Source of the DNA: Desulfobulbaceae bacterium UBA5611
Lineage (GTDB): Bacteria; Desulfobacterota; Desulfobulbia; Desulfobulbales; Desulfocapsaceae
Length of the DNA stretch: 64,000 nt
Reading direction: 5' to 3'
Assembly (NCBI GenBank): GCA_002424635.1
Contig: DIKT01000029.1
Span: 6,254 to 70,253, forward strand
This document shows positions 37,825-52,512 of this stretch, piece after piece. Position 1 is the stretch's first letter. Every line of letters starts with the position of its first letter. The translations under genes were made by a program, and so were the position numbers. The notes under the pieces were generated by a model, which was not told the DNA's origin, searched no databases, and saw only the letters and a list, made by a program, of their open reading frames with translations.

Positions 37825-38676
37825 CTAGCTTGTAATAAAATCGCCGCCATTGATATGAATTATCTGGCCGACCACATAAGAGGCATCGTCACTGGCCAGA
37901 TAAACAAAGGCGGGTGCTACCTCGCTCGGCTGGCCGGCTCTGCCCATGGGAGTATCCTGGCCGAATTTCTGGACTTGCTCTTCATCAAAGGTCGCCGGTA
38001 TTAATGGTGTCCAGATAGGACCGGGGGCCACGCCATTGACCCTGATTTGTTTGGGCACCAGATTCTGGCTTAACGATCTGGTGAAGGACACAATAGCGCC
38101 TTTGGTCGAGGAATAATCAAGAAGACGACTGCTGCCGCGGTAGGCCGTAATGCTGGTGGTATTAATGATCGAGTCGCCTGCAGATAAATACTGTAGAGCT
38201 GCTTTGGTGATATAAAACATGGAAAAAATATTGGTCCTGAAAGTAGCTTCCATCTTCTCCAGATCAAGCTCCTCCAGATCTTTGGCTACATGCTGTTCGG
38301 CGGCATTATTAACAATAATATTTATCCGGCCGAATTCGGCCGCAGTTTTTTCAACGGCCGTGCGGCAAAAGGCTTTATCGCCAATATCGCCGGCAATGAT
38401 CAGACATTTGCGCCCTTCTTTTTGGACAAGTTCCAGAGTCTGTCGGGCATCTTCATCCTCTTGAAGATAGATGATGGAGATGTCTGCTCCTTCCCGGGCA
38501 AAATGCACGGCCACGGCCCGGCCAATCCCGGAATCACCGCCAGTGATGAGGGCCACTTTATTTTTCAATTTTTCACTGCCGCGATAAGTATCCTTGATAA
38601 ATTCCGGTTGAGGACGCATTTTATATTCATAGCCCGGCTGCGATTGCCGCTGTTTGGGAAATTCTTTTGGTTGCAT
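37825..38676 (-). CDS. SDR-family oxidoreductase (YdaD/GSP39-like)
   Basis: ALITGGDSGIGRA, NNAA, YSSTKGA motifs. Start MQPKEF behind an AGGAG RBS. Confidence 0.85.
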   Translation of the reverse strand: MQPKEFPKQRQSQPGYEYKMRPQPEFIKDTYRGSEKLKNKVALITGGDSGIGRAVAVHFAREGADISIIYLQEDEDARQTLELVQKEGRKCLIIAGDIGDKAFCRTAVEKTAAEFGRINIIVNNAAEQHVAKDLEELDLEKMEATFRTNIFSMFYITKAALQYLSAGDSIINTTSITAYRGSSRLLDYSSTKGAIVSFTRSLSQNLVPKQIRVNGVAPGPIWTPLIPATFDEEQVQKFGQDTPMGRAGQPSEVAPAFVYLASDDASYVVGQIIHINGGDFITS

Positions 38677-38771
38677 TCTTTCTCCTTTAATCAAGATTTT
38701 AGAAGAGCAGAACTTATTGAAATGGCCAGTCAAAGTGTGGCCCTGCTGCCATAAAAAACTGTCTTGAACTG

Positions 38772-39569
38772 CTAGCCGGTCATCCGGGCCTTTTTCTGTT
38801 CTTCAGCCTGTTCGATGCTGGCTTTGAGGCGGGCCACGATATCAATCATATTAGTCGGCTGGATCTTTACTTCCTCCGCCTCAAATTCGACACCCTCTGC
38901 TTTGGCGCGGATCATCGCCAGCATTTCTTCCCGGTAGCTGTCATGAAATTCTGTGGGCTCAAACTCGCCGCTCATGCTTTTAACGAGCAGATCGGCCATT
39001 TCTACCTCGCGTTGGCCCAGCTTCACGGCGGTTGTCGGCAGCCCGATCCCTTCTGGTTTGCGGATCTCATCCGGATAATGCATCATGTTCATGACCAGCA
39101 TCTGCTCAGTCGGGCGGATGAGAGCGAGAGTTTCCTTGTCGCGCATGACCATTTTTGCCACTCCGACTTTTTGGGCCCGCTTGAGCGCATCCACCAGCAA
39201 GGCATAGGGCATGGCCCCGCCTTCATTGGGGCCAAGATAATAGGCTGTATTGAGATAGATAGGATCGATGGCTGCAGCATCGACAAATTCCTGAATCTCG
39301 ATTGCCCGGGTGGCACTGCGGGCGAATTTAGCGAATTCATCATCGGACAGGGTCACATAGCGGCCTTTTTCCAACTCGTATCCGCGAATGATCTCTTCGG
39401 CCTCGAGATTCTTGCCGCAGACCTTGCAGATTTTTTGGTAACCGATGCGGCCGCCATCATCTTTATGGAGTTGATTAAAATGCAGCTGTTTTTCCTCAAT
39501 GGCGGGGAAAAGCGCTACCGGTATATTAACCAGCCCGAAGCTGATGATCCCTTTCCACATCGCCCGCAT
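38772..39569 (-). CDS. ku: Ku protein (NHEJ)
   Basis: MRAMWKGIISFGLVNIPVAL canonical Ku start, 265 aa, directly downstream of ligD. Confidence 0.9.
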   Translation of the reverse strand: MRAMWKGIISFGLVNIPVALFPAIEEKQLHFNQLHKDDGGRIGYQKICKVCGKNLEAEEIIRGYELEKGRYVTLSDDEFAKFARSATRAIEIQEFVDAAAIDPIYLNTAYYLGPNEGGAMPYALLVDALKRAQKVGVAKMVMRDKETLALIRPTEQMLVMNMMHYPDEIRKPEGIGLPTTAVKLGQREVEMADLLVKSMSGEFEPTEFHDSYREEMLAMIRAKAEGVEFEAEEVKIQPTNMIDIVARLKASIEQAEEQKKARMTG

Positions 39570-39571
39570 AG

Positions 39572-42175
39572 TTAAGACTCCATCCTCAGCTCAGCTTTTG
39601 ATGAATTGCCATGCAATATTGTCACTGCCTGTTTCAGCCTCTGTTTAAGCTCCAGCACCGGCAGAAACAGATCTCCGACCTGATCGATTCTGGCGTCCAT
39701 GGTCTTGATGGTAAACTGGGTCGGCTGCAGACATTGTTCCACCTCAGGCCAGGTCAAGGGCGCCGAGACGGTTGCTCCTTCTCTGGCCCTGACTGTATAG
39801 ACGCCCGCCAGTGTTTTACTCAATCCGTTCTGCAGATAATCAAGATAGACGGTTTCAGCCGGGCGCTTTTTGGTCATCCGCTCAATGGTTGTTTCCTCGG
39901 GGCTGCGGTCATGGGTGAGGCGGGCCATCACCTCGGCAAAAGCGGTGACCTGCTCATGGCCGTAAATGGCCTCTACCGGAATAAAGATATGGAGGCCGCG
40001 GCTGCCGGAGGTCTTGGGGCAGGATTGTAAACCGGCATCGGCCAGCAGATCCCGGATCAGCAGCGCCACTTTACAGATCTTCGAATATTTGGTGTCCGGG
40101 CCGGGATCAAGATCGAGAACCACATAATCCGGATGTTGGGTAGTCAGATATCTGGAGTGCCAGGGGCTGATCTGCACGGCGCCGAGGTTGGCCAGATAGA
40201 CTAAGGTCGCTCTGTTGTTGCACAGGGCGTACACAATCTGCTCGCCTTTATCGTTGGCAGGTGAAGTCCATGTCTTGATAAATGGTGGGGCCCCCTCGAG
40301 ATTGTGTTGATAGAAGGCCTGGGCCTTAATACCGTTAGGGTATCTCTTGAGCACCAGTGGCCGGTCCTGGAGGTGGGGCAGAATAGTCGCGGCAATCTGG
40401 TAATAATAACGGACGAAGTCGCCTTTGGTAAAACCACTGTCGGGCCAGTAGATTTTCTCCAGATTGGTGAGGGCGAGTTCCTGGCCATCAACTATTACCC
40501 GGTGGTTGCCGTGCAGTGTTTCTGCCGCAAAAAAATCCGCGGCCTGCAGGGCAGTCTTCGCGCCAACGGCTGAGTGTTTTTTAAGCTTCGGGTGGCCGGC
40601 AGGCGTCTTTTCTACCTCAACAATTTCCTGGGCTTCCAGCGTACAGGTCCGTGGATCTTTATCATCTCTTAGCCGCAGGAAAATGGGGTGACGGAGTTTG
40701 CCGTCGCCGGTTTTCTCCGTATAACGGACTTCACAGACCAGCTCAGGCCGTAGCCACTGCGCCGGCTGGTCTGTCTTGACCGCTGTCGCAAAAGGGGAAT
40801 TGTCTGTTCGCCGTGAGCTCATCAGCTCAAAGATCTGTTTCAGGCTATTTTCGCTGAAGCCGCCACCGACGTTGCCGATGTAGCGCAGTTGGTCCTTATC
40901 ATAAAGGCCGAGGATCAAAGCGCCGAAGGATGAACGGCTGCCGCGGCCTTTGGTGTAACCGCCGATGACGGCGTCCATGGTCTGCGCGGTCTTGATCTTC
41001 AACCATTTTTTACTGCGCCGCTGCTCATATTTACTGTGGCTGTCCTTGGCCACGACACCTTCCATCTGCTGCGCGCGGATCTGCTCAAAAAGCAGGGTAC
41101 CCTTCTCCTTGACATGATCGCTGAGCCGGATGCTGCCTTGATTATCTATGAGTTGAGATAGAAGATGTTTACGGTCGAGTAAGGGTTCATTGCTGAGATC
41201 ATGGCCATTACAGTAGATCAGATCGAAGACATAATAGACCAGAACCGGTTTGTCGGTACTGCTCGGTTTGGCACGAAAGCCGGCGGCGTTCTGCATCAAT
41301 TGAAAATCCGGCTTCCCCTCGGCATTGAGGGCCACGATTTCACCATCAATGACAGCCGTTCGGGCCGATATCTCAAAGCGGGCCGCGACCAGCTCAGGGA
41401 ACTTGTCGCCGAGATCGATATGATTCCTGGAGACAAAGCGAATCCGGTCGTCCTCCACATAACAGATGCTGCGGTAGCCGTCCCATTTAATCTCGAAAAG
41501 CCAATCGGCATCATCGAATGGTTGGTTGACCAGAGTGGCCAGCATCGGCTCAACTTGGGCAGGAAAGGGGCCGGGTTTACCTATTTTAACCTCGACGATG
41601 TGCTTCTCGGTACCGTTCACCACGACGGTTGCCGCTTCGGCCAGGGGGCGGCTTTTGCTGTCAGAGGCCAGGACGGGTTCAAGCGTCCACCCTGGAATAG
41701 CGCACTCATCTGCCTTTTTCATGAGCAGCCAGGAGTCTTGCGCCTGCCTGGTGCGCACCAGATGAAACTCGCCGCATAGCCGCCGGCCCTTAAGCCTGAA
41801 GCTGAGCTTGCCATTGTGGAGGCCCTGCTCAGGATTGGGCGGATCAATGATCTCATAGCTGCCGATGTCCCAGACAGCCACCTCACCTGCGCCATAGTTG
41901 CCTTGAGGGATGGTGCCTTCGAAGGTGAGGTATTCCAGGGGATGATCTTCAGTCTGGACGGCCAGACGCTTTTCGTGGGGATCAAGGGAGGGACCTTTGG
42001 GGATGGCCCAGCTTTTCAGGACGCCATTGATCTCCAGCCGCAGATCAAAATGCAAATGGCGGGCATGGTGCTCCTGGATGACGAAACTTTGCCCGGAACC
42101 ATAATCACTGACTCCGCCAGCTGGCTCCGGCGTTTTGTCGAGCTGTCGTTTGCTCCTATACTTATCAAGCGACAT
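39572..42175 (-). CDS. ligD: DNA ligase D (phosphoesterase + ATP-ligase + polymerase/primase domains)
   Basis: PE domain FVIQEHHARHLHFDLRLE, ligase KxDG (FEIKWDGYR), Pol domain VVLDLDP and SGSRGLHIFIP. The ATG at 42175 has a GGGAGA RBS. The ORF is open to 42211. Confidence 0.9.
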   Translation of the reverse strand: MSLDKYRSKRQLDKTPEPAGGVSDYGSGQSFVIQEHHARHLHFDLRLEINGVLKSWAIPKGPSLDPHEKRLAVQTEDHPLEYLTFEGTIPQGNYGAGEVAVWDIGSYEIIDPPNPEQGLHNGKLSFRLKGRRLCGEFHLVRTRQAQDSWLLMKKADECAIPGWTLEPVLASDSKSRPLAEAATVVVNGTEKHIVEVKIGKPGPFPAQVEPMLATLVNQPFDDADWLFEIKWDGYRSICYVEDDRIRFVSRNHIDLGDKFPELVAARFEISARTAVIDGEIVALNAEGKPDFQLMQNAAGFRAKPSSTDKPVLVYYVFDLIYCNGHDLSNEPLLDRKHLLSQLIDNQGSIRLSDHVKEKGTLLFEQIRAQQMEGVVAKDSHSKYEQRRSKKWLKIKTAQTMDAVIGGYTKGRGSRSSFGALILGLYDKDQLRYIGNVGGGFSENSLKQIFELMSSRRTDNSPFATAVKTDQPAQWLRPELVCEVRYTEKTGDGKLRHPIFLRLRDDKDPRTCTLEAQEIVEVEKTPAGHPKLKKHSAVGAKTALQAADFFAAETLHGNHRVIVDGQELALTNLEKIYWPDSGFTKGDFVRYYYQIAATILPHLQDRPLVLKRYPNGIKAQAFYQHNLEGAPPFIKTWTSPANDKGEQIVYALCNNRATLVYLANLGAVQISPWHSRYLTTQHPDYVVLDLDPGPDTKYSKICKVALLIRDLLADAGLQSCPKTSGSRGLHIFIPVEAIYGHEQVTAFAEVMARLTHDRSPEETTIERMTKKRPAETVYLDYLQNGLSKTLAGVYTVRAREGATVSAPLTWPEVEQCLQPTQFTIKTMDARIDQVGDLFLPVLELKQRLKQAVTILHGNSSKAELRMES

Positions 42176-42249
42176 CGGCCAGTCTCCCATGTTATAATTT
42201 CGCTCAAACAAAGTATTATCCAGATCATTATTTGACCTTTATTGCCGGC

Positions 42250-42306
42250 CAAAAAAAAAGGGAAGAGAAAAGACGGCCCTGCTAAGGGGATGCGGCTCTT
42301 CTCCTC
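42250..42306 (-). terminator. Probable terminator after the hemerythrin gene
   Basis: Imperfect GC-rich hairpin (GAAGAG..CCCTgctaAGGG..CTCTTC) followed by T9 on the minus strand. Confidence 0.4.
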
Positions 42307-42320
42307 CCTGCGGTTCTTGG

Positions 42321-42779
42321 TTATCTCAGATTTTTTCGGATTTTTTGTTTTTCCTGCTCAAACTTGGTCATGATAGTGTGGAGCTCGTCCCGGTCGAAAG
42401 CTTTTTTAGCACTTTTGAATATGTTGCTCTCTTCGTCTTTGATATGGTGATCAACCAGCTCTTTAAACACCCTCATCTTGGCGGCCCATTTATCATCGCC
42501 CTTCGGCATTTTGTCCAGTTCCTTTAAAACCAACTCACTCACATGATGTTCCTCCATGCCTTCCAGCGCATCTTCACGAGCCTCCTCCTTTTCCATTAAA
42601 GGTGTATAAAAAACGCCTTCCTCGGCTTTCATATGAGGTACCAGTTCTTCTTTCAGCTGTTGAAATAATTGTTCCCGCTTCTTCATTGTGGCGCCATTTT
42701 CACTGGTTTCATCAAGCTGTTCCAGGATGTCCTTTACTTCCATATGATCCTGCTTGAGCAATTTAAAGAATTCATTCAT
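42321..42779 (-). CDS. Hemerythrin-like (HHE cation-binding) domain protein
   Basis: H/E-rich four-helix pattern (DHMEVK, VPHMKAEE, EEHHVSE, DHHIKDEE). AGGAG RBS. Confidence 0.75.
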   Translation of the reverse strand: MNEFFKLLKQDHMEVKDILEQLDETSENGATMKKREQLFQQLKEELVPHMKAEEGVFYTPLMEKEEAREDALEGMEEHHVSELVLKELDKMPKGDDKWAAKMRVFKELVDHHIKDEESNIFKSAKKAFDRDELHTIMTKFEQEKQKIRKNLR

Positions 42780-42803
42780 GTTTTTTTTCTCCTTGTCTTC
42801 GCT

Positions 42804-42908
42804 TTAAGTGCATCCACGCAATAGGTAAAATAATATTAAGATGGGAATTGGCACTCCCAATGCCCACAGCAAAATCCAGCCTATCTTTCCATTTTGATTG
42901 TTAAGCAT
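42804..42908 (-). CDS. Possible 34-aa single-TM micro-protein
   Basis: MLNNQNGKIGWILLWALGVPIPILILFYLLRGCT. It fills the gap between two operon genes, but the RBS is weak. Confidence 0.3.
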   Translation of the reverse strand: MLNNQNGKIGWILLWALGVPIPILILFYLLRGCT

Positions 42909-42984
42909 AGAGAGCCTCGATTCGGTCAATTTAATTTTAGGATATCACTATTCTTTACAATAGCTTTACCGGCTCATAGATGGC

Positions 42985-43320
42985 TTAACGGAAAAACTCT
43001 GATGCAATATCGGAAAGGGCATTGACTACTGGTCGGGCGATACGGTTGGTCCGCGGGCGATGGTTAGTAGTATTGGCCAGGAGAAGACCTATGCCAACTC
43101 CTATGCCTAAGGCAACAAGAATAGTCGTGCCGGGATTTTCCTGGTTATAAACTTTGGCCTTTTCGTAGGTTTCATTCAACTTTCTGGTTGTTTTATTATA
43201 CATTTCACTTGCCGTTTTCTCAGCCTCTTCATAGGCCTCGGCGCCTTCTTCAATGATATTGGCAGTTGGGCTACCGGTCGCGCCCTGCTGTCTGGGGGCC
43301 TCGAATCTATTTGTCTCCAT
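42985..43320 (-). CDS. DUF883/ElaB/YqjD-like tail-anchored stress protein
   Basis: Start METNRF behind an AGGAGG RBS. Charged helical N-terminus, then ENPGTTILVALGIGVGIGLLLA TM. Confidence 0.6.
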   Translation of the reverse strand: METNRFEAPRQQGATGSPTANIIEEGAEAYEEAEKTASEMYNKTTRKLNETYEKAKVYNQENPGTTILVALGIGVGIGLLLANTTNHRPRTNRIARPVVNALSDIASEFFR

Positions 43321-43390
43321 GATATATCCTCCTGAATAAAGATGAGTTTTGATACTTCTGGAAATCTTAAAGGATCTTAAGGCTAAATTA

Positions 43391-43795
43391 TTATATGTTA
43401 TGGCCGCGCCCACTACCGGCAGTTTTGGCAGGTAAGGTTGCATATTTGATCCAATCGGTGGCCGCCTTTGTCACTATGGCCATCAGTGTTACTCTGAACA
43501 AGCCGGGCTTAGCGGCAGCGGCATTCAGGCCATTGAGTGAGTCGTGAACTTCCTCGGTTAAGGAGTCCAGGAAGCGTTCCAAAGGCGGGCGGCGTGTCTT
43601 TATTCTCTTGGCGGCAAGATAGCCAAGACCACCAGCAACGCCAAGCGCCCAATAGGGCGAATCCCTTACATAGACCCGCCAATCAAGTTTCTCTTTGAGG
43701 CGCTCTCCGATTTGTTCGGCTGTCTGCGAAAGTTGCTGTTCCTCTCGAGCTATATCCTGCATGATATCTTCGGTAGTACGTTCTTTGTCAGCCAT
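43391..43795 (-). CDS. Membrane protein with DUF3618-like charged N-terminal helix
   Basis: MADKERTTEDIMQDIAREEQQLSQTAEQIGERLKEKLD, then YWALGVAGGLGYLAA TM. AGGAGG RBS. Confidence 0.5.
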   Translation of the reverse strand: MADKERTTEDIMQDIAREEQQLSQTAEQIGERLKEKLDWRVYVRDSPYWALGVAGGLGYLAAKRIKTRRPPLERFLDSLTEEVHDSLNGLNAAAAKPGLFRVTLMAIVTKAATDWIKYATLPAKTAGSGRGHNI

Positions 43796-43832
43796 TCAGG
43801 ATCCTCCTTTCCTTAATATCTTTGATTAAAAA

Positions 43833-44174
43833 TCATTTTTGTAATTGCTTGGAGCCAATGAGAGCTAGAATGATCCCGACGACAGCAAAAACTACGCCAA
43901 TGATCAAGGCAGCAAGGGCGGGAGAGGTATATGAGGTAAGTCCGATGATCAAGGCCGCGCCAAAAGACAACAAGGCAGCAAAACCGATAGCTGCTCCTGT
44001 CGCGATCAATATGGCTGCCTGTTGAATAGTGCTCAACTTGTCGCGAAACCGTTGTATGACGAGCTCAATCTCATCGTGAATCACGGCGGCTGAGCCCTTA
44101 GCAAGCTGCCCCAGCAATTCAGGCAAGGATCCCGGTTCGGTAACGCCGGTATTATTTTCCACTTTATTATTCAT
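43833..44174 (-). CDS. YqjE/holin-X-like (DUF1469) two-TM protein
   Basis: Start MNNKVE behind a GGAGG RBS. Amphipathic N-terminus plus two long Gly/Ala-rich TM helices, ending in SKQLQK. Confidence 0.6.
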   Translation of the reverse strand: MNNKVENNTGVTEPGSLPELLGQLAKGSAAVIHDEIELVIQRFRDKLSTIQQAAILIATGAAIGFAALLSFGAALIIGLTSYTSPALAALIIGVVFAVVGIILALIGSKQLQK

Positions 44175-44188
44175 CGGGGGAGGCCTCC

Positions 44189-44458
44189 TTACCGGTGCCG
44201 GCACATCGCTCCGATAACCAGGCCGACGGCGCCTGCTATCAAAAGGCTGCGTCCCGGACTCTCTCTGACGTATTCCCGAACTCTGGCATCGGCCTCTTGA
44301 TAATCAAATTGGCGGATATATTCGGCTGATTGGTCCAGCCATTCGGATGCTTTGATGCCATATTGCGCCATCTTCTCGTTTGGAACGTCCGGGTCGATCG
44401 CTTTTTCGCACAAAACCTCAGCCGCTTGATGGAGCTTGTCGGCAATGATATTTTTCAT
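44189..44458 (-). CDS. DUF883/ElaB/YqjD-like tail-anchored protein
   Basis: C-terminal RESPGRSLLIAGAVGLVIGAMCRHR. The start is uncertain, because the ORF is open to 44602. Confidence 0.55.
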   Translation of the reverse strand: MKNIIADKLHQAAEVLCEKAIDPDVPNEKMAQYGIKASEWLDQSAEYIRQFDYQEADARVREYVRESPGRSLLIAGAVGLVIGAMCRHR

Positions 44459-44648
44459 GTTCCCCAGGCCGCAGCAGCATGATCTATCCGACCCTGGGAT
44501 CCCTGCCGTGGTCTCTCCGGTTGGGTCTATATCACAATTAGTTATTCCCATAGTTCGCCTCATAAAGGAGTCATGGTTGAGAACAGCCTGAACATTTTGC
44601 AATGATGAAAATATGATGACTATCTGTTCATGACCCGTTTGCTATAAC

Positions 44649-45317
44649 TTATAGCTTATCACGTAGAGGAGCTCTGGTACTGGAAGTAGTAGTGGCGGTG
44701 GTCCTTGGCTTGGACTCGCCTGCTGTTGGATAATCAGGATTATAATCACGGCGTGGAGGGACATCAGAGCCGGGTTTATCGCTGATATCATAGTCGGCAC
44801 TGGCTTCTGCTTTATAGGCCACATCTTCCGCCCCGGTCCGTTCTAAAATGTCTTTAGCCTTATTCTTCCAGTCCCGATTGTCGGCATGGACAGAGAGTAA
44901 AATTCCGCCTTCTTTGATACGCCCTTCATAGCGGTTGGCCTCATACTCGGGAATACCCATACCGATCAGTGCTCCGGCTATACCTCCGACTAAGCCACCG
45001 GCGCCGACCCCGGCTAAAGCAGCCACGATGGGTCCAGCTGCAACAAAAGGACCAATACCCGGGATGGTTATTAAGCCAATGCCGGCCAGCCAGCCTAAAG
45101 CTCCACCAATGACGGCCCCGCTGCTGGCCCCTGTCGCTGTTCCTTCCGGGGCCTTGGTTTCTTTCTCGATAGCGAAATCTTTGGTGCCGCCGCTTTCAGG
45201 AAACAAGACCGAGATGTCGGCACTGCGGAAGCCGGCTTCTTTTAATTCATCGACTGCTTTTTCAACGATCAGGCGGCTCGGATAGATGCCGTAAACTGCG
45301 ATGTTTTTAGATGCCAT
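44649..45317 (-). CDS. YflT (GSP17M)-like general stress protein with central glycine-zipper membrane region
   Basis: NIAVYGIYPSRLIVEKAVDELKEAGFRSADISVLF, then a ~70-aa G/A-rich hydrophobic segment, then IPEYEANRYEGRIKEGGILLSVH. GGAG RBS before ATG 45317. Confidence 0.6.
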   Translation of the reverse strand: MASKNIAVYGIYPSRLIVEKAVDELKEAGFRSADISVLFPESGGTKDFAIEKETKAPEGTATGASSGAVIGGALGWLAGIGLITIPGIGPFVAAGPIVAALAGVGAGGLVGGIAGALIGMGIPEYEANRYEGRIKEGGILLSVHADNRDWKNKAKDILERTGAEDVAYKAEASADYDISDKPGSDVPPRRDYNPDYPTAGESKPRTTATTTSSTRAPLRDKL

Positions 45318-45341
45318 CACCTTGTCTCCTTTCTTCAGAAT

Positions 45342-45731
45342 TTAGGGTTTGATAGTAATCTCGCTATTAATCCTATTGTTTCCTGCTGCCTGGGAGGCCT
45401 TCTGTTCAACCATTGTTTTTTCCTGCTCAGTTCTGACGTGCCCTTTTAATGTTACTACGCCACGCTCGGTAGTGATCGCCACATTCCTCTGAATCTCTTT
45501 GGGTAGTGTCTGGTCATCCTCGATGGCCTGCCAGATTTTTCCTGTGATCTCACGTTCTTCTTTGGTGCCGACTGTTTGCTTTTCAGCAAGCGGACCAGCT
45601 ACACCTACGGTTTTGTCCTGAGGGGGAGTTATTGTTTCCGGTTTATGGACCGCCAAACATGCTCCCGGGAAGTTGCCAAGCAAAAAGCCCGCTACCAACA
45701 AAGTCATAAAAAGTGTTTTATTTTTAGACAT
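45342..45731 (-). CDS. Secreted single-BON-domain protein (OsmY-like)
   Basis: Signal peptide. BON core VAITTERGVVTLKGHVRTEQEKTMVEQKA. AGGAG RBS. Confidence 0.8.
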   Translation of the reverse strand: MSKNKTLFMTLLVAGFLLGNFPGACLAVHKPETITPPQDKTVGVAGPLAEKQTVGTKEEREITGKIWQAIEDDQTLPKEIQRNVAITTERGVVTLKGHVRTEQEKTMVEQKASQAAGNNRINSEITIKP

Positions 45732-45864
45732 TTCATTTCTCCTTTTGTTATTACATGCTGAGTAATTCTGTTGCGTTAAGGCCCCTTGTCTTCATGTTTT
45801 ATGGACCACCTCCTTTTTTTATATCTATAAAAGTATGACTTGAGAATTTGTCATACTTTATATA

Positions 45865-45880
45865 AGCAATTTTAGTGCCA
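45865..45880 (-). promoter_or_regulatory. Sigma54 promoter of the BON/tail-anchored protein operon
   Basis: Minus strand reads TGGCACTAAAATTGCT, an exact TGGCAC-N5-TTGC. About 135 nt upstream of the ATG at 45731. Confidence 0.75.
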
Positions 45881-45929
45881 AGGAAATAAAATCAGTGATT
45901 ACAAAGGTATGAGATGACAAATAGTTGAA

Positions 45930-45985
45930 GCTGCTTGTGCGCTAAAACTTTTTCCCGAAATACGGAAACGAAAAAACGGAAATTT
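45930..45985. promoter_or_regulatory. Conserved upstream element A (candidate enhancer/UAS)
   Basis: GCTGCT..CGCTA..CTTTTTCCCGAAATACGGAAACGAAAAAACGGAAA lies 50-105 bp upstream of the -24 element. The core recurs at 50528-50580. Confidence 0.6.
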
Positions 45986-46032
45986 GAATTGAGCAAATTG
46001 TTTTAAGAGAAGACAGCTTTAGAAGAGAAAGA

Positions 46033-46395
46033 TTATTTATTGATAAATAAGATGGTGGTCCACCAGGCTATAAAGAGAAATTCAGCAAGCGCATCAAGCA
46101 GATAAATTGCTGCAATGATGCGCTTTTTAAAATAAATGATGTCGACTCCGGCCAGAACTACCGCACTACCGATGGCGAGCACTGCAGTTGATAACATTGG
46201 TTCCTGCCGCATTCCTGCAATTATCAAGGTAGTGCCGATGACAAAAAGAATAGCTCCCACAGTTTTCACAAGCCACAGGTCATGTTTCGGGCCGGTGACC
46301 TGCTGGAAGCTCTCGATGCTCACAATAGGCCAGATGCCGGTCAGGGCATAAAAGATGCCTTGGGTCAGAGCAGTAAGAAAAAAATTTTCTATCAA
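46033..46395 (-). CDS. Four-TM membrane protein, unknown function
   Basis: 120 aa, four hydrophobic helices, TTG start. Lies 19 nt downstream of the Cys-rich protein gene. Confidence 0.5.
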   Translation of the reverse strand: MIENFFLTALTQGIFYALTGIWPIVSIESFQQVTGPKHDLWLVKTVGAILFVIGTTLIIAGMRQEPMLSTAVLAIGSAVVLAGVDIIYFKKRIIAAIYLLDALAEFLFIAWWTTILFINK

Positions 46396-46414
46396 AGCCT
46401 ATACCCTATTCAAC

Positions 46415-46741
46415 TTAGGCCATTTTACGGCATTCATCTGCACATCTATAGCAGGCTTGAGCGCATTGCTGACAATGCTCCATCGTATGTTTGTTGCATT
46501 CATCACCGCATTCCTGGCAAACCTGAGCGCATAAGTCGCAGATTTTGGCAATATATTTGGAGCCACGGGCCATGAAACGGGCTGCCAGGTTGCAAATATC
46601 GGCGCAATCTTGATCGAGTTCGATGCAACGAACCATTATTTTAATATCATCTTCCAGCAAGCAGGCAGACAGGCAATGTTCGCAGGCTGTGACGCACTCA
46701 TTGCAGGCCTTGATACAGGTTTCATATTGTGTATGGGACAT
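46415..46741 (-). CDS. Cys-rich four-helix-bundle metal (copper)-binding protein (DUF326 family)
   Basis: 19 Cys in 108 aa, arranged as repeated CxxxCxxC/CxxCxxxC heptads (CIKACNECVTACEHCLSAC ... CQQCAQACYRCADEC). GGGAGG RBS. Confidence 0.8.
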   Translation of the reverse strand: MSHTQYETCIKACNECVTACEHCLSACLLEDDIKIMVRCIELDQDCADICNLAARFMARGSKYIAKICDLCAQVCQECGDECNKHTMEHCQQCAQACYRCADECRKMA

Positions 46742-46801
46742 AATTTCCTCCCGTTAATGATTAAAAGTCTTGACTGTCAAATGGCGTCCTTGGGTTACAA
46801 G

Positions 46802-46850
46802 CAAAAAAAGCGGGCGGAACGCTCTTGATAATAAATAAGAGCGTCCGCCA
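46802..46850 (-). terminator. Rho-independent terminator after the KGG-repeat gene
   Basis: GGCGGACGCTCTT / AAGAGCG(T)TCCGCC hairpin followed by T7 on the minus strand. Confidence 0.75.
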
Positions 46851-46918
46851 CCTTTAATAAGTACAGGCCGGCATTTTGAGCCTGACCTCGTGCCGGGTTT
46901 TATCTATGATGGCTGAGA

Positions 46919-47323
46919 TTATCTGTTTTTATGGCTTTGGCGGCCGGCCTTGGCATGCTGTTCCGGTGTGCCGCCGCGGGCTGATTTGCCTGAACTTTTA
47001 CTGCTGCTGCTGGAACTGCGGCTGCTCGAACCACGGCTGCTCTCGCCCCCTTTGGCGCCAATGTCTGCCATGTGAGAACGATCCCGGCTGGTCGACTCGC
47101 CGCCTTTACGGCCAATATCAGCCATATGCTCACGGTCCTGACTGACGGTTTCTCCACCTTTCTGACCGGCGCGGCGCGCCTCTTCAGATGTGAATTCATG
47201 GGCGGTGCCTTTTTCATGGGCTGCCTTGCCGCCCTGGCTTGCTATCTCTCGTTGTCGCTTTTCATCCATGGATGCAAAGCCGCGCTTACTCTGGCTTCCT
47301 ACATCTTTTCTATGACTAGGCAT
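46919..47323 (-). CDS. KGG-repeat general stress protein (GsiB/YciG-like)
   Basis: Repeated QGGKAAHEKG / QKGGETVSQDREHMADIGRKGGE / IGAKGGES. Ser-rich tail. Start MPSHRK behind an AGGAG RBS. Confidence 0.8.
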   Translation of the reverse strand: MPSHRKDVGSQSKRGFASMDEKRQREIASQGGKAAHEKGTAHEFTSEEARRAGQKGGETVSQDREHMADIGRKGGESTSRDRSHMADIGAKGGESSRGSSSRSSSSSSKSSGKSARGGTPEQHAKAGRQSHKNR

Positions 47324-47614
47324 GATCGTCTCCTTTAAGCTTAAATTTGCTGCAATCAAAGCAATGGTTAAGATTGCAGATAAGGGGGAGTCAACAACTT
47401 TGGGGCCATTGATGACCCCAGGCACTTCCAGAGATTAAAAAATACTTAATCATAGGAAATACATCATGGTTCTCATCATCGGCTATGCCTCCATCAAGTG
47501 ATGCCGCTGTCAACGGCAATGAGAGATAATAAGGATGAAGTTGCTGTTCATCCTGCCTGTGCATGGTTGCATGACTCGTTGTCATCTCATGATGGCCGGA
47601 TCGGGCAATTGTTT

Positions 47615-49705
47615 TTATGCTAAGACCCGCACGTACTGCTCCCGGTCCCATTGACGTGTCTTGGCCGCGGTAATAAAAGCATCATGGTCATTGATGTCGA
47701 CTATGCCGGCATCCAGCCCGACATTGGCTATATCCAAGAGGGCCTGGCCGCCATTGTCAACGGCAATGGCCTTGAGATGAGAGAAGGCATCCTGGACAAA
47801 CTGGATGGCGGCGCTGTCCATCGACAGCATCTCGGCCCCTTCGTCAGAGAGGATGATGGCCACGGCATCAAAAAGAACCGAAGGGGCACCGGCTAGCTGC
47901 TTGTCTGCCGGCAGCATTGAACCATCAGCCAGCATCGCCCCGCCTACTTTCGGGGCGATGATCTTTACGCCGGCGCCGGTATCAGTGATGGCCTTTTTTA
48001 TCTTATTGATGACTTTACCGTCGGACCCATCGGCAATCAGGATGCCGATATCGCGGCCCATAAGGGTGTCTTTCATTTTGCCGATGATCTGCAGGGCAGG
48101 GGAAGGCGGCAGATCCTGGACAGGGGCGGCCGCCACCGGCGCAGCGGGCATTTTTTCCAGGCCAAGACCCGTGGCCACCCGTTGGGCGAGGTCCTCTGCA
48201 ATATGTCGCAGATGACCAACCATGGCCTCCCGGACATGATTGGTAACTCGGGAAAGCTCAAAGACCAGGGCTGAAGCCAGATGGGCCTGCTCATATGCGG
48301 TCTGGCTGATATAGAACTGCCGGGCCTGGCTGTAATGGTCGGCGAAGCTCTCGGCCCGGATGCGGCCTTTGCCGCCAGTTTCAGTTATGGCGGCGCTATG
48401 AAAGCCATGAGGAGTTTCCCGCGGCGAGATTTTCGATAAGGAGTTGGGTTCATAAGCAACCTGGCCCGCCTGTGGAGCCATTTGCATATGACCATCACGC
48501 TGCTGATTGCCAAATGGACATTTTGGCGAGTTGATGGGGATCTGCTGGAAATTGGGCGAGCCCAGGCGCGACAGCTGGGTATCGAGATAGGAGAACAGGC
48601 GGCCCTGCAGCAAGGGGTCATTGGAAAAATCAAGGCCCGGCACGATATTGGCTGGACAGTAGGCGACCTGTTCCGTCTCGGCAAAGAAATTGCTGGGCCA
48701 TCTATCCAGGACCATGCGGCCGATAACCTTTAAAGGCACCAGCTCTTCCGGAATCAGCTTGGTCGGATCGAGATGATCGAACGGAAATTCGGCCGCCTCC
48801 TCTTCCGTAAAAAGCTGGACCGCGAATTCCCATTCCGGAAAATTACCGGAAGTGACGGCCTCAAACATATCACGCCGGTGATAGTCCTGATCGGCCCCGG
48901 CAATCTTGACGGTCTCGTCCCAAATGGTAGACTGCAAGCCGAGTTTGGGGCGCCAGTGAAATTTGACAAAGGTTGATTCACCATTGTCATTAAGCAGGCG
49001 GAAACTATGGACGCCAAAACCTTCAATCATGCGCAGCGACCGCGGAATAGTGCGATCGGACATGATCCACATGATCATATGCATGGATTCCGGCGAATGG
49101 TTGATAAAGTCCCAGAAGGTGTCGTGCGCTGTTGACGACTGCGGAAAGCCGCGGTCGGGCTCCATTTTGACGGCATGAATGATATCGGGAAATTTGATGG
49201 CATCCTGAATAAAGAAGACTGGGATATTATTGCCGACCAGATCCCAATTACCTTCCTTGGTATAAAACTTGACGGCAAAGCCGCGGACATCGCGCGGCGT
49301 ATCAATCGAGCCAGCGCCGCCGGCTACGGTTGACAACCGGGTAAAGACCGGGGTTTTTTCCCCAACCTCAGTGAGTATCCTGGCGGTGGTATACTGCGCC
49401 AATGAGTCGGTCAATTCAAAGAAGCCGTGGACGCCTGTGCCGCGGGCATGAACGACCCGTTCAGGAATGCGCTCGTGATCGAAATGGGTAATTTTTTCCC
49501 GCAGCATGAAATCTTCCAGCAGGGTCGGGCCTTTGGCATTAGCCCTTAGGGAGTTTTGATTATCGGCAATGGCAACCCCCTGATTGGTAGTCAGCGGTGG
49601 GTGCTCCCCCTCGACGCTTTGGTGTATTTCGCCGCCGGCAGCATGTTGTAAGGCTCCTTTACCCATCGCACTTTTCTCTTGTTTGCTTTTTTTAGAATTT
49701 GTCAT
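47615..49705 (-). CDS. katE: Large-subunit catalase (HPII type) with C-terminal DJ-1/PfpI-like domain
   Basis: 696 aa. [22 protein letters not shown]-type core, VRFSTV-like RLSTVAGG. C-terminal glutamine-amidotransferase-like domain. Confidence 0.9.
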
Positions 49706-49764
49706 TTTTGCCTCATAGTCAGAATGGTGAGTAAAAAATGTTCTTGTTAAGTTTTGTCTTGTAT

Positions 49765-50205
49765 TTAGGCCTTGACCGCCTCTAAGGCCGATTCGACCCG
49801 AGGTAGCATTTTGGTATTGTCAAAGTCGCCCCGTAAGACTTTCAAGGCATATCTCTCACGATCTATCTCCTGCTGGGTGCGAACCCCCAGCCTGCGGAAG
49901 ATGGGGACAGGCGGGCACCAGCCCTGTACTGCATGTTCGAATAAAAATGGTAATACTATGCCCGGTACCAGCAGCCATTTCCGATTATAGGTCAGACCGA
50001 GCACCAGTCCGGTGAAGGCCAGAGCGGAGGCATTAGTTTCAAGCATGCGCTCCATGTCCCATTCCCGGTCGAGCTCATTGAGACGGCAATTGATATCAGC
50101 AGTGCTTTTCTGGGCATATGCGCGGACCCGAGCATCAATGTTTTGATCAATCTGGCTGTTGATTTTTGCTGAAGTATGAGCCCGGACCCTGTCTGTTTTA
50201 GCCAT
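49765..50205 (-). CDS. DUF2892 (YgaP-like) membrane protein
   Basis: Start MAKTDR behind a GGGAGGA RBS. Two TM segments and the QGWCPP motif. Confidence 0.65.
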   Translation of the reverse strand: MAKTDRVRAHTSAKINSQIDQNIDARVRAYAQKSTADINCRLNELDREWDMERMLETNASALAFTGLVLGLTYNRKWLLVPGIVLPFLFEHAVQGWCPPVPIFRRLGVRTQQEIDRERYALKVLRGDFDNTKMLPRVESALEAVKA

Positions 50206-50450
50206 AATTTTTCCTCCCTGGGAGTTAAATTCAAGTCTTATAGATCTTAGGATCAGGATCCCTTTTTTGATTCTTTGGAATAAGAGAAAGATCGCGACGA
50301 GGGTTGGGTAGCCACGACTTTTCTCCTCATTCAAGTCATTGAGCCACTTATTTTTAAGATGAAAAGAAGATATACTGTTGAGGTAGTGAGTAAATTGGTT
50401 TTTTGCTCCAATGAGTCTGCACGCTTAAAATATAGCTTATTTTACTGAAC

Positions 50451-50466
50451 AGCAATATTTATGCCA
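50451..50466 (-). promoter_or_regulatory. Sigma54 promoter of the DUF2892-katE unit
   Basis: Minus strand reads TGGCATAAATATTGCT, with exact -24/-12 spacing. About 245 nt upstream of the ATG at 50205. Confidence 0.7.
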
Positions 50467-50527
50467 GTATTGCTTGGTCTGTTTTTAAGTAATTATTATT
50501 AGGACTTCATGTCAGTTTGACGATTTC

Positions 50528-50580
50528 GCTGCTATTTTTCGCTACGCTTTCCCGAAAAACGGACCGAAAAAACGGACTTA
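50528..50580. promoter_or_regulatory. Conserved upstream element B (candidate enhancer/UAS)
   Basis: GCTGCT..CGCTA..CTTTCCCGAAAAACGGACCGAAAAAACGGAC lies 62-114 bp upstream of the -24 element. Cores CCCGAAAnACGGA and CGAAAAAACGGA are identical to element A. Confidence 0.6.
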
Positions 50581-50692
50581 TCCTTATCAGGTAGGAAGCA
50601 TAACCGATTGTATGAGATCATCACCAAAAGTCTTGCCTGTTATTTAATTAACCCGGTAATCCGCTTAGACATGGACTCTAAAGATAGATGCA

Positions 50693-50721
50693 TTGACAAT
50701 CAGTCCGGAACGATGCAATAT
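50693..50721 (+). promoter_or_regulatory. Candidate sigma70 promoter for the GGDEF gene
   Basis: TTGACA, 17 nt, CAATAT. About 80 nt upstream of the ATG at 50800. Confidence 0.4.
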
Positions 50722-50799
50722 TTCTTGTAAAGATTTAAATATTCCAATGGCGTTAATGATCTGAAGAAATAAGTGAGATTATCTTCATTCAGAGGTCAT

Positions 50800-52512
50800 A
50801 TGCACATCAAACTATCTACATCCCGAAAAGAGGCCCTCCGGATAGCTCTACCTCCCCTGGTAGCTGTTGTTCTGTTTGTCTCCGTTGTTTTCGGCTTGCT
50901 TCTGCCGGGCTATCATAATGCTGTGCTGGAACGAAAAAAGGAGATGATCCGCGAATTAACCACTACCGCCTGGAATATTCTGCAGTATTATCATACCAGG
51001 ACCGGCCATGGTGAGCTGACCCGGTTGGAGGCTCAAACCATGGCGGCGGAGGAGATCGGCAGACTTCGTTATGGGCCTGATAATAAAGATTATTTTTGGA
51101 TAAATGACATGCGGCCGGTGCTGATCATGCATCCCTATCGGCCGGATTTGGAAGGTCAGGATGTGTCTGATTTTGCCGATCCCAGCGGCCAGCGGCTGTT
51201 TGTGTCCTTTGTTGATAAGGTCCAGCAGGAGGGCTCCGGTTTTGTCCCTTACCTCTGGCAGTGGCAGGATGATGCCAGTCAAATAGTGGCCAAATTATCC
51301 TATGTCAAAGGATTCCAACCCTGGGGCTGGATCGTCGGTACTGGTATCTATCTGAATGATGTAGAACAGGAAACGGCCTTGGTCACGACCAGACTGGCTA
51401 TGATCTCCCTGGCCATTCTGCTTTGTATTGCCGCCCTTTCAGCCCATAGCATACGACAGGGTATCCGGGCGGTGCGCCAGCGTCGGCAGGCCTTGGAACT
51501 GCTGAGTCAGCATCGCGATCAGCTGGCTGAGGATGTCAACGAACGGACCCGGGAATTGCAGGAAAGTAACGAGCTCCTGCGTTCAGAAGTAGAGGAACAT
51601 GCCAGTGCCGAAAAGCATATCACCGGCCAGCATGCCTTCCTGGAAAGCGTCTTAGAGTCGCTGCCGTTTCCTTTTTATGTAGTGAATGCCGATAATTATT
51701 TGATTGAGATGGCCAATTCTGCGGCCAAGAAAGAAGGTTGGGTTGGAGGTGCTTGTCATCTTCTGACCCATGGCAGCCCAGTGCCATGCGGTGGTGAGGG
51801 CCATTCTTGCCCCCTGGATGAGGTGAAAAGAACAGGCTTGCCGGTAACCTTAGAGCATCAGCATTATGATCATGAGCACGGAGCCTGTCGTTTTTATGAG
51901 GTACACGGCTTCCCTATCTTTGATAAAGAAGGCCGGGTGGTCAAAATGATCGAAACCAGTCAGGATATCACCCAGCGCAAGGAACTGGAGGCTCAGCTTA
52001 TAGAAATCTCCAATACCGATCAGTTGACCGGTCTCTATAATCGACGCGGCTTTTTTATTATGGGCGAAAAACAGATGCAGGTGGCTGAGCGTCTGGGCAG
52101 CCGGCTGACTCTGCTTTTTGCTGATGTTGATAATCTCAAGCCGATCAATGATACCCTTGGCCATGAAGGGGGTGATGCTATTTTAAAGGCAGCGGCCACC
52201 GTCCTGATAGATACTTTTCGCCAGGCTGATATTGTCGGGCGCTTAGGTGGTGATGAATTTGCTGTCCTGTTGATAGAAGGCAGCGAGGAGGCTAATGACT
52301 TTACAATGCAGCAGCGTCTGCAGGAAAATATCGACCATCGTAACCGGGCCTTCCCTGCTTTTCCTCTGGAGTTGAGCACCGGTACTGCTCTGTTCGATCC
52401 CGCCAACCCCTGCTCCCTTGAGGATCTCATCGCCGAGGCGGACCGACATATGTATGAGGACAAGCAGGCCAAGAAAGCCGTAATTGTTCTTAAGCCTGCA
52501 GAGACAGCATAG
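50800..52512 (+). CDS. Diguanylate cyclase: periplasmic sCache sensor + TM + coiled coil + Cys-motif PAS + GGDEF
   Basis: YFWINDMRPVLIMHPYRPDLEG Cache signature, RLGGDEFAVLL active site. The ATG at 50800 has an AGAGG RBS. The ORF is open to GTG 50773. Confidence 0.85.
   Translation: MHIKLSTSRKEALRIALPPLVAVVLFVSVVFGLLLPGYHNAVLERKKEMIRELTTTAWNILQYYHTRTGHGELTRLEAQTMAAEEIGRLRYGPDNKDYFWINDMRPVLIMHPYRPDLEGQDVSDFADPSGQRLFVSFVDKVQQEGSGFVPYLWQWQDDASQIVAKLSYVKGFQPWGWIVGTGIYLNDVEQETALVTTRLAMISLAILLCIAALSAHSIRQGIRAVRQRRQALELLSQHRDQLAEDVNERTRELQESNELLRSEVEEHASAEKHITGQHAFLESVLESLPFPFYVVNADNYLIEMANSAAKKEGWVGGACHLLTHGSPVPCGGEGHSCPLDEVKRTGLPVTLEHQHYDHEHGACRFYEVHGFPIFDKEGRVVKMIETSQDITQRKELEAQLIEISNTDQLTGLYNRRGFFIMGEKQMQVAERLGSRLTLLFADVDNLKPINDTLGHEGGDAILKAAATVLIDTFRQADIVGRLGGDEFAVLLIEGSEEANDFTMQQRLQENIDHRNRAFPAFPLELSTGTALFDPANPCSLEDLIAEADRHMYEDKQAKKAVIVLKPAETA

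Follow-up and report, generated by a model that had tools for sequence, protein, structure and literature searches.

A conserved YqjD/YqjE-like membrane module and its linked hemerythrin in a candidate sigma-54-dependent stress operon of a Desulfobulbaceae bacterium

We analysed a stretch of 64,000 nucleotides (nt) of DNA from Desulfobulbaceae bacterium UBA5611 (GenBank assembly GCA_002424635.1, contig DIKT01000029.1, positions 6,254 to 70,253; henceforth referred to as the window, to whose own numbering all positions refer) and found that eight genes on its minus strand appear, from their sequence, to form one sigma-54-dependent transcription unit inside a larger island of stress genes of this anaerobe, with catalase and DNA end-joining genes among them. 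At the centre of this operon are four genes for YqjD- and YqjE-like membrane proteins, and its last gene encodes a hemerythrin. We see about an even chance that it is a dormancy or oxygen-stress operon, in which a YqjD/YqjE-like glycine-zipper inner-membrane complex silences ribosomes, the hemerythrin is an iron- or oxygen-responsive partner and the BON, YflT and micro-protein products are envelope add-ons; the identity of the parts is held with more confidence, and the mechanism with less, than this statement as a whole.

The open reading frame (ORF) listing of the 64-kb window places the eight genes, here called g1 to g8 in the direction of transcription, between 45731 and 42321 on the minus strand. 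The first, g1 (45342-45731), encodes an exported BON-domain protein of 129 amino acids (aa) and is followed by g2 (44649-45320), for a YflT/ActD-like protein of 222-223 aa; g3 (44189-44551), for a YqjD-like tail-anchored protein of 120 aa; g4 (43833-44174), for a YqjE-like protein of 113 aa with two membrane helices; g5 (43391-43795), for a helical protein of 134 aa with a central glycine-zipper helix; g6 (42985-43320), for a second YqjD-like protein, of 111 aa; g7 (42804-42908), for a single-helix micro-protein of 34 aa; and g8 (42321-42779), for a hemerythrin-like di-iron protein of 152 aa. An earlier note on this DNA had described a tightly packed eight-gene unit with ribosome-binding sites, and this description was confirmed: a GGAG-type site lies 5-10 nt upstream of all eight ORFs and the intergenic gaps from g1 to g8 measure 14-97 nt. 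The start of g4 was taken as the ATG at 44174, and that of g3 as the ATG at 44551, which was set by alignment with 48 relatives and gives a conserved N-terminus, 'MGINN..DKTGE..GSGKSTGF'. Within residues 1-31 of g3 (44459-44551, minus strand) the window carries a cysteine cluster, SCCCGLGN, and a similar cluster occurs in the closest relative (locus L005); at the same position the other 46 relatives have GSGKSTGF. Because every product has conserved homologues elsewhere, none of the eight ORFs, the 34-aa g7 included, is a chance occurrence. An intrinsic terminator at ~42250-42309 on the minus strand closes the eight-gene unit ahead of the LigD gene; its hairpin has a stem of 14 bp or more with nine U behind it and folds at -33 kcal/mol (z = -3.1). 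A scan of 41800-50800 against Rfam at E <= 1 returned no match, and therefore no riboswitch or known leader is present in this interval. Opposite the glycine-rich stretch of g2, the plus strand carries a Pro/Ala-rich antisense ORF of 116 aa (44935-45285), which is in all likelihood no gene but a by-product of reading GGN codons in complement.

The single sigma-54 promoter that had been proposed for the operon is an exact consensus -24/-12 element, TGGCACtaaaaTTGCT, on the minus strand at 45865-45880, just outside the interval first given for the operon and 134 nt before the ATG of g1; it is the sole exact match to the sigma-54 consensus in the 64-kb window, against 0.14 expected. About 70 nt 5' of this element lies a candidate upstream activator site of 30 nt, TCCGTTTTTTCGTTTCCGTATTTCGGGAAA (45951-45980, minus strand). 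A second sigma-54-like promoter with the near-consensus sequence TGGCATaaataTTGCT (50451-50466, minus strand) precedes a small ORF and a catalase gene, and a near-identical copy of the 30-nt sequence is found at ~50548-50576, ~81 nt 5' of it. Both promoters thus carry TCCGTTTTTTCG.(T)TCCGTWTTTCGGGAAA 70-81 nt upstream, and the 16-nt core of the shared element occurs at just these two sites in the window, against 0.09 expected. As the 30-nt element is common to both, one activator may act on the operon and catalase promoters, with the element as a good candidate for its binding site. In the related loci described below, we scanned up to 300 nt 5' of the first module gene for sigma-54-like elements with at most two mismatches and with GG and GC fixed. 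Of 46 loci, 10 had such an element where 2.4 were expected (P = 2e-4), so sigma-54 control is recurrent but not universal; the enhancer-dependent control that had been claimed therefore has an exact element behind it here, but a recognisable one in just those 10 loci. PAS-type sigma-54 activators are encoded within 5 kb of the module in 10 of the 26 loci with long flanks. Alignment of the promoter region of the window with that of L005 was uninformative.

The evidence for a conserved module comes from a scan of genomes with the g5 family, which yielded 51 loci whose six-frame ORFs were searched with the window proteins. These loci belong mostly to metagenome-assembled genomes of Desulfobacterota; Acidobacteriota, Planctomycetes and Balneolales contribute a few, and the isolate Desulfovibrio sp. 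DV contributes one. Contig ends cut six of them. Where the contig allows a judgement, the order and strand of g3-g4-g5-g6 are kept in 44 of 45 loci, with gaps of ~15-50 nt and with g4 (PF07332) directly 3' of g3 in 44 of the 45; L024 alone is without g3-g4. Since this order is so consistently kept, the invariant unit consists of the four genes g3-g6, whereas the BON, YflT, g7 and hemerythrin genes are recurrent but optional at module loci. The earlier note's eight-gene module accordingly stands for its core and not for its accessory genes, which are also found without the core, and conservation of gene order holds for g3-g6, but for all eight genes in one other lineage only: locus L028 has the identical order BON-YflT-g3-g4-g5-g6-g7-hemerythrin, at a g5 identity of just 56%. 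Other arrangements are catalase-BON-YflT-g3..g6-hemerythrin in L010, LigD-Ku-YflT-g3..g7-hemerythrin in L005 and CsbD-g7-catalase-YflT-g3..g6-hemerythrin in L058 (Desulfomicrobium). Clustering and Pfam searches identified as frequent neighbours an AI-2E-type permease, DUF5670, DUF3309, CsbD, PRC-barrel, a BON lipoprotein, ABM, superoxide dismutase (SOD), catalase and Ku. In the catalase-BON intergenic region of L010 (1000-1200) there are three tandem units of ~50 nt (…AAGGAGGTGAAGGTTTCAATCCTAACG…), each with a Shine-Dalgarno-like AAGGAGGTG.

Within the core, the product of g4 is a member of the Pfam family Phage_holin_3_6 (PF07332; 54.1 bits against a cutoff of 28.4) and has two hydrophobic segments; Escherichia coli YqjE belongs to the same family (75.8 bits). 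With the DUF883_C model (PF19029; Pfam cutoff 27) the other three products scored 21.1 (g3), 20.4 (g5) and 16.3 bits (g6); E. coli YqjD scored 57 bits with PF19029 and 49.5 bits with PF05957, the DUF883 N-terminal domain. When profiles were compared by hhalign, g3 matched E. coli YqjD with a probability of 94-95% across the last 34 residues and g6 did so with 92% across 59-64 columns, aligning with YqjD residues 34-71 at low column confidence; for g5 the probability was just 60%. A 'YVRxxP' kink and a glycine-zipper membrane helix are common to g3, g5, g6 and YqjD, the motifs ahead of the helix being REYVRESPG (g3), RVYVRDSPYW (g5) and KVYNQENPG (g6) compared with DEYVRENPW in YqjD. Profile comparison thus supports the view that g3, g5 and g6 are kin of DUF883 despite their scores; the DUF883-like calls made previously survive as kinship but not as Pfam assignments, and a YqjD/ElaB-YqjE-type centre of the operon was borne out. 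For the greater part, g3, g5 and g6 are predicted to consist of cytoplasmic helix. Tail anchoring in the strict sense is seen in g3 alone, whose helix stands at the extreme C-terminus with a basic end (REYVRESPGRSLLIAGAVGLVIGAMCRHR, ending ...GAMCRHR), and not in g6, in which ENPG and the glycine-zipper helix are followed by a 30-aa tail; in g5 a central YVRDSPYW and glycine-zipper helix are followed by a 70-aa C-terminal extension.

The family defined by g5, although small, is real, with 212 homologues and with 369 of 1.84 billion representative clusters, and it is without a model of its own. All 20 of the aligned members weakly match DUF883_C (best E = 1.5e-4), and homologues are named 'ElaB/YqjD/DUF883 family membrane-anchored ribosome-binding protein' by the Joint Genome Institute. 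The proposed likeness of g5 to DUF3618 (PF12277) proved weak: six of the 20 members match below the cutoff (best E = 7e-4), and the g5 of the window itself gave no match to this family in the Pfam search. Although g5 occupies the position that yqjK holds in E. coli, its identity as YqjK was rejected, as the hhalign probability was 0.1% and the YqjK family (PF13997) was unmatched among window proteins and g5-family members in Pfam searches.

The product of g8 scored 61.9 bits, above the cutoff, with Pfam Hemerythrin (PF01814), and the di-iron ligands H12, H49, E53, H78/H79, H111/H112 and E116 are invariant in its clade. It also matched the NCBIfam model of the PA2171 family, named 'ribosome-binding persister protein' (NF053874), over residues 5-151 of 152 with 92.8 bits (E = 1.8e-26). 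A scan of metagenomes with the g8 clade gave 80 loci, and linkage was counted in the 22 that had at least ~63% identity and upstream sequence. Directly 5' of the hemerythrin, on the same strand and within 201 nt, stood g6 or g5 in eight loci and g7 in ten, which amounts to 18 of 22 (82%). Downstream, a LigD gene starts 10-145 nt 3' of the hemerythrin in 8 of the 22 loci, and Ku or catalase is next in others. In L066, L071, L073, L079, L080 and L135 the LigD start lies just 10-15 nt beyond the hemerythrin stop, and because of this narrow gap the two genes are probably co-transcribed in these relatives; the window differs in having a strong terminator hairpin between them (42212-42320). With family-specific profiles, no linkage to the module was seen for distant hemerythrins (35-46% identity). 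The converse linkage fails, as most module loci are without the hemerythrin. In Desulfonatronum lacustre (L057) the hemerythrin occurs with CsbD, catalase and SOD and without the core. Just 5' of this CsbD-hemerythrin-catalase-SOD group (2998-5344 in L057) are a gene for a BON-MscS fusion channel and a gene for a ribosome hibernation factor (Ribosomal_S30AE), the latter being another link of the stress gene set to ribosome hibernation.

Of the accessory products, g1 scored 44 bits with Pfam BON (PF04972; cutoff 27), has a signal-like hydrophobic segment at residues 5-28 and matched the OsmY and ArfA equivalog models of NCBIfam weakly. For g2 the scores were 31 bits with YflT (PF11181; cutoff 26.2) and a borderline 26 bits with ActD (PF11821; cutoff 25.7); genes for other Alternative Complex III subunits were not seen beside it. 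Its hydrophobic stretch (residues 66-123) forms a glycine-rich core of ~60 aa between two soluble halves, and a search of PDB by sequence returned spurious matches to de novo TIM barrels. The BON, YflT, YqjE/holin-X and hemerythrin calls of the earlier note were all upheld by scores above the curated Pfam cutoffs. Homologues of g2 adjoin the core in L005, L006, L010, L026, L028, L058 and L067, and a BON-YflT pair does so in L006, L010, L026 and L028. What had been put forward as a possible 34-aa micro-protein turned out to be a real gene: a search with a 41-aa ORF as query found at least 210 homologues of g7, mostly called as 34-aa genes and all named 'hypothetical', with the consensus M.N.E.GK(I/V)GWILLWALG(V/I)PIPIL....LRGCT and an invariant RGCT C-terminus. 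No Pfam or NCBIfam model matches this family, and DUF5670 and DUF3309 were rejected as its identity (hhalign probability <20%). In genome loci g7 is kept 3' of g6 in nine cases and lies elsewhere in four more; at L060, L062 and L063, which lack the core, its neighbours are catalase, Ku, or BON with an AI-2E permease. Since it keeps such company independently of the core, g7 is a stress-island component in its own right.

The island around the operon runs, along the minus strand, from a small ORF and catalase HPII through genes for a KGG protein, a Csp1-like protein and a protein with four transmembrane segments (4-TM) to the operon and on to LigD, Ku and a short-chain dehydrogenase/reductase (SDR). 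The small ORF 5' of catalase (49765-50204, ~146 aa, with a 'GWCP' motif) had no match in Pfam or NCBIfam, and we take it to be DUF2892-like. Catalase HPII (47615-49705) is followed by a terminator-like hairpin (47554-47532), the KGG protein (46919-47425) and a Csp1-like/DUF326 Cys-rich four-helix-bundle protein (46415-46741; 45 bits, below the NCBIfam cutoff). The 4-TM protein (46033-46395) travels with the island, as a homologue lies directly 5' of LigD in L005. On the other side of the operon are LigD (39572-42211), Ku (38772-39569) and, next after Ku, an SDR of the PRK06701 subfamily (37825-38733), which is presumably that of the Bacillus general stress protein YdaD; with this SDR the island looks still more like a sigma-B-type gene set. 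All these genes are on the minus strand. The dormancy or oxidative-stress setting suggested by the earlier note agrees with the genomic company of the module, since catalase, KGG, LigD-Ku, CsbD, SOD and BON neighbours all fit it. The remaining window is ordinary chromosome, with genes for DnaG, RpoD and PBP1. A PADLOC search gave no credible match to a defence system. Unrelated to the operon, a giant ORF of 3060 aa (14314-23496, minus strand) lies beside a gene for a DUF748 protein (23607-25199, minus strand).

In the reading to which we give an even chance, the products of g3-g6 would assemble via their glycine-zipper helices into an inner-membrane complex, to which g3, g5 and g6 would each contribute a glycine-zipper membrane helix, preceded by a proline kink and a helical N-domain in the cytoplasm, and g4 would be the YqjE-type two-helix partner. 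On growth arrest or exposure to oxygen the cytoplasmic N-domains would hold and silence ribosomes at the membrane, like those of E. coli YqjD and ElaB. The PA2171-like hemerythrin could be an added iron- or oxygen-sensitive brake or sensor; the products of g1 (an exported BON protein), g2 (a YflT-type protein with a glycine zipper) and g7 (a membrane peptide of 34 aa) could be add-on envelope stress proteins; and one enhancer-binding activator would jointly turn on the present operon and that of catalase. Several results weigh against this reading. The scores of g3, g5 and g6 with DUF883_C are all sub-cutoff, and none of the three matched PF05957 at E <= 0.1, the domain that is the ribosome-binding part of YqjD. 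With 30 (g6) and 70 (g5) residues beyond the membrane helix, two of them are not strictly tail-anchored; the 'membrane' helix of g5 is weakly hydrophobic, and the AlphaFold model of g5 (20 sequences), although all-helical, is of low confidence (pLDDT 49) and for that reason too poor for a fold search. The score of g8 with the PA2171 model falls short of the equivalog cutoff of 190 bits, and g8 is therefore a relative of PA2171 and not an equivalog. The accessory genes vary among loci and also occur without the core. Lastly, the shared 30-nt element was not found in the related loci, nor was an activator gene found among the large window ORFs scanned.

That the DUF883 N-terminal domain was not detected in g3, g5 or g6 would also suit a module without a ribosome role, in which g3-g6, together with BON, YflT and g7, would keep the inner membrane stable or repair it during oxidative, osmotic or envelope stress. 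Envelope protection has likewise been proposed for ElaB and for PA3040-3042 of Pseudomonas aeruginosa, of which the latter are stress-induced, and overexpression of PA3040 or PA3041 was not growth-inhibitory in that species, which also counts against silencing by g3-g6 (PMC11302039). The partners BON, YflT and g7 are themselves envelope or membrane proteins, and AI-2E-type permeases, BON lipoproteins and DUF5670/DUF3309 membrane peptides recur among the neighbours. However, the best-studied homologues, YqjD and ElaB, directly inhibit translation in vitro, the family that the linked hemerythrin clade matches takes its name from ribosome binding, and g3, g5 and g6 are mostly predicted cytoplasmic helix; we hold envelope protection to be the main rival account but a less probable one. 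The variability of the accessory genes raises the further question of whether the operon is a single system at all: BON, YflT, g7 and hemerythrin come and go among loci, both g7 (next to catalase, Ku or BON) and the D. lacustre hemerythrin (with CsbD, catalase and SOD) are found at loci that lack the core, and the stress genes katE, KGG, PA2171 and ku of P. aeruginosa are loosely linked within PA2134-PA2190 (PMC9262955), all of which would be expected if independent general-stress genes shared nothing more than a promoter and each product acted alone. Against this, g3-g6 stay together, never reordered, with narrow gaps in all but one of the informative loci, and the identical eight-gene order recurs in L028 at its low g5 identity; the invariant core and the 82% adjacency of the hemerythrin clade weaken such a mosaic, which we judge quite improbable. 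A holin-type, toxin or phage-derived membrane-permeabilising system is suggested by the match of g4 to 'Putative Actinobacterial Holin-X' and by the reported toxicity of E. coli YqjE on overexpression, as cited in PMC11302039. Here, though, phage genes, lysins and integrases were not found nearby, the context being chromosomal with DnaG, RpoD and PBP1; PADLOC gave no meaningful defence match; and stress genes are the neighbours in every lineage examined, so that we consider this origin extremely unlikely.

A bolder form of the ribosome-silencing reading would be that g3-g6 and a dedicated PA2171-like hemerythrin constitute an unrecognised membrane-anchored, oxygen- or iron-sensitive multi-subunit machine for translation silencing in anaerobes, co-inherited with LigD-Ku and catalase as a dormancy cassette. 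We think this unlikely as it stands, but if it were true, separately discovered silencing factors (DUF883 proteins and the PA2171-type hemerythrin) would work as one complex. YqjD-type proteins have only recently been shown to be ribosome-hibernation factors, and their constant partners YqjE and YqjK are without known function. The present locus family offers a natural experiment, in that a core with three DUF883-like proteins is genetically linked to a PA2171-related hemerythrin, to non-homologous end-joining repair and to catalase. If the link is functional, membrane-anchored translation shutdown would be tied to oxygen or iron sensing and to the repair of DNA breaks in dormant anaerobes, and a tractable hypothesis for the role of the YqjE-type partner would follow. 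The component families and the YqjD-YqjE pairing are already known. What is new is that the core is fixed at four genes, three of them for DUF883-like subunits, that one hemerythrin clade is tightly coupled both to this core and to LigD-Ku, and that the wiring is of the sigma-54 type, with an upstream element common to two promoters. Also new are the g5 family and the RGCT micro-protein, with which two protein families without any model have been defined.

Comparison with described systems places the operon among relatives on several sides, and its parts have precedents in the literature: yqjD-yqjE-yqjK synteny, PA3040-3042, PA2171 and PA2134-PA2190. The E. coli proteins YqjD and ElaB bind at the tunnel exit of the 50S subunit and prevent translation, for which they need the N-terminus, dimerisation through the membrane helix and a conserved proline, and yqjE-like/yqjK-like synteny is conserved across the YqjD family (bioRxiv 10.1101/2024.08.16.608256). 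In both yqjC-yqjD-yqjE-yqjK and the window a DUF883-type gene stands directly 5' of a PF07332 gene, which is followed by a gene for a small helical membrane protein; both also have the glycine-zipper helix with its 'YVRENP' kink, and a stationary-phase and stress character. In contrast, the three DUF883-like genes of the window lie in one operon, whereas the three paralogues of E. coli, the ribosome-hibernating tail-anchored proteins YqjD, ElaB and YgaM, are dispersed; the DUF883 N-terminal domain of YqjD was not detected in the window proteins; and the third core gene, g5, is DUF883_C/DUF3618-like with a 70-aa extension where E. coli has YqjK (PF13997). The window is without YqjC (DUF1090) and adds BON, YflT, micro-protein and hemerythrin. 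Its promoter is of the sigma-54 type, unlike that of E. coli yqjD, which is reported to be RpoS-dependent. Inner membrane protein ElaB reportedly provides resistance to oxidative stress under regulation by OxyR and RpoS.

In P. aeruginosa, PA3040-PA3042 (YqjD-like, YqjE-like and hypothetical) are induced by envelope stress and in stationary phase (PMC11302039). Like the core, they are tightly spaced genes for a YqjD-like, a YqjE-like and a small protein without a recognised domain; unlike the window, they belong to a different lineage, have no known sigma-54 link and are without a second or third DUF883-like gene, hemerythrin, BON or YflT. The hemerythrin-like persister protein PA2171 is a translation repressor that binds both ribosomes and FtsZ (PMC13041383), and its gene lies in PA2134-PA2190, a region that also contains katE, ku and the gene of a KGG protein (PMC9262955). 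The PA2171 island and that of the window are alike in catalase KatE, the KGG protein and Ku/LigD, but PA2171 shares its operon with PA2172 and PA2173, whereas g8 is with DUF883-like genes instead. As to the Actinobacterial Holin-X family (PF07332), g4 is a member, whereas the g5-family matches to DUF3618 (PF12277) are below cutoff; these two families are probably neighbours in Actinobacteria. Finally, the window resembles the sigma-B stress set of Bacillus subtilis, to whose regulon YflT, CsbD, KatE, a YdaD-type SDR and GsiB/KGG-like proteins are assigned, in having YflT, catalase HPII, KGG and the PRK06701 SDR, with CsbD in its relatives. The B. subtilis genes are scattered and under a different regulator, whereas in the window the genes are gathered in one place and the promoter is of the sigma-54 type.

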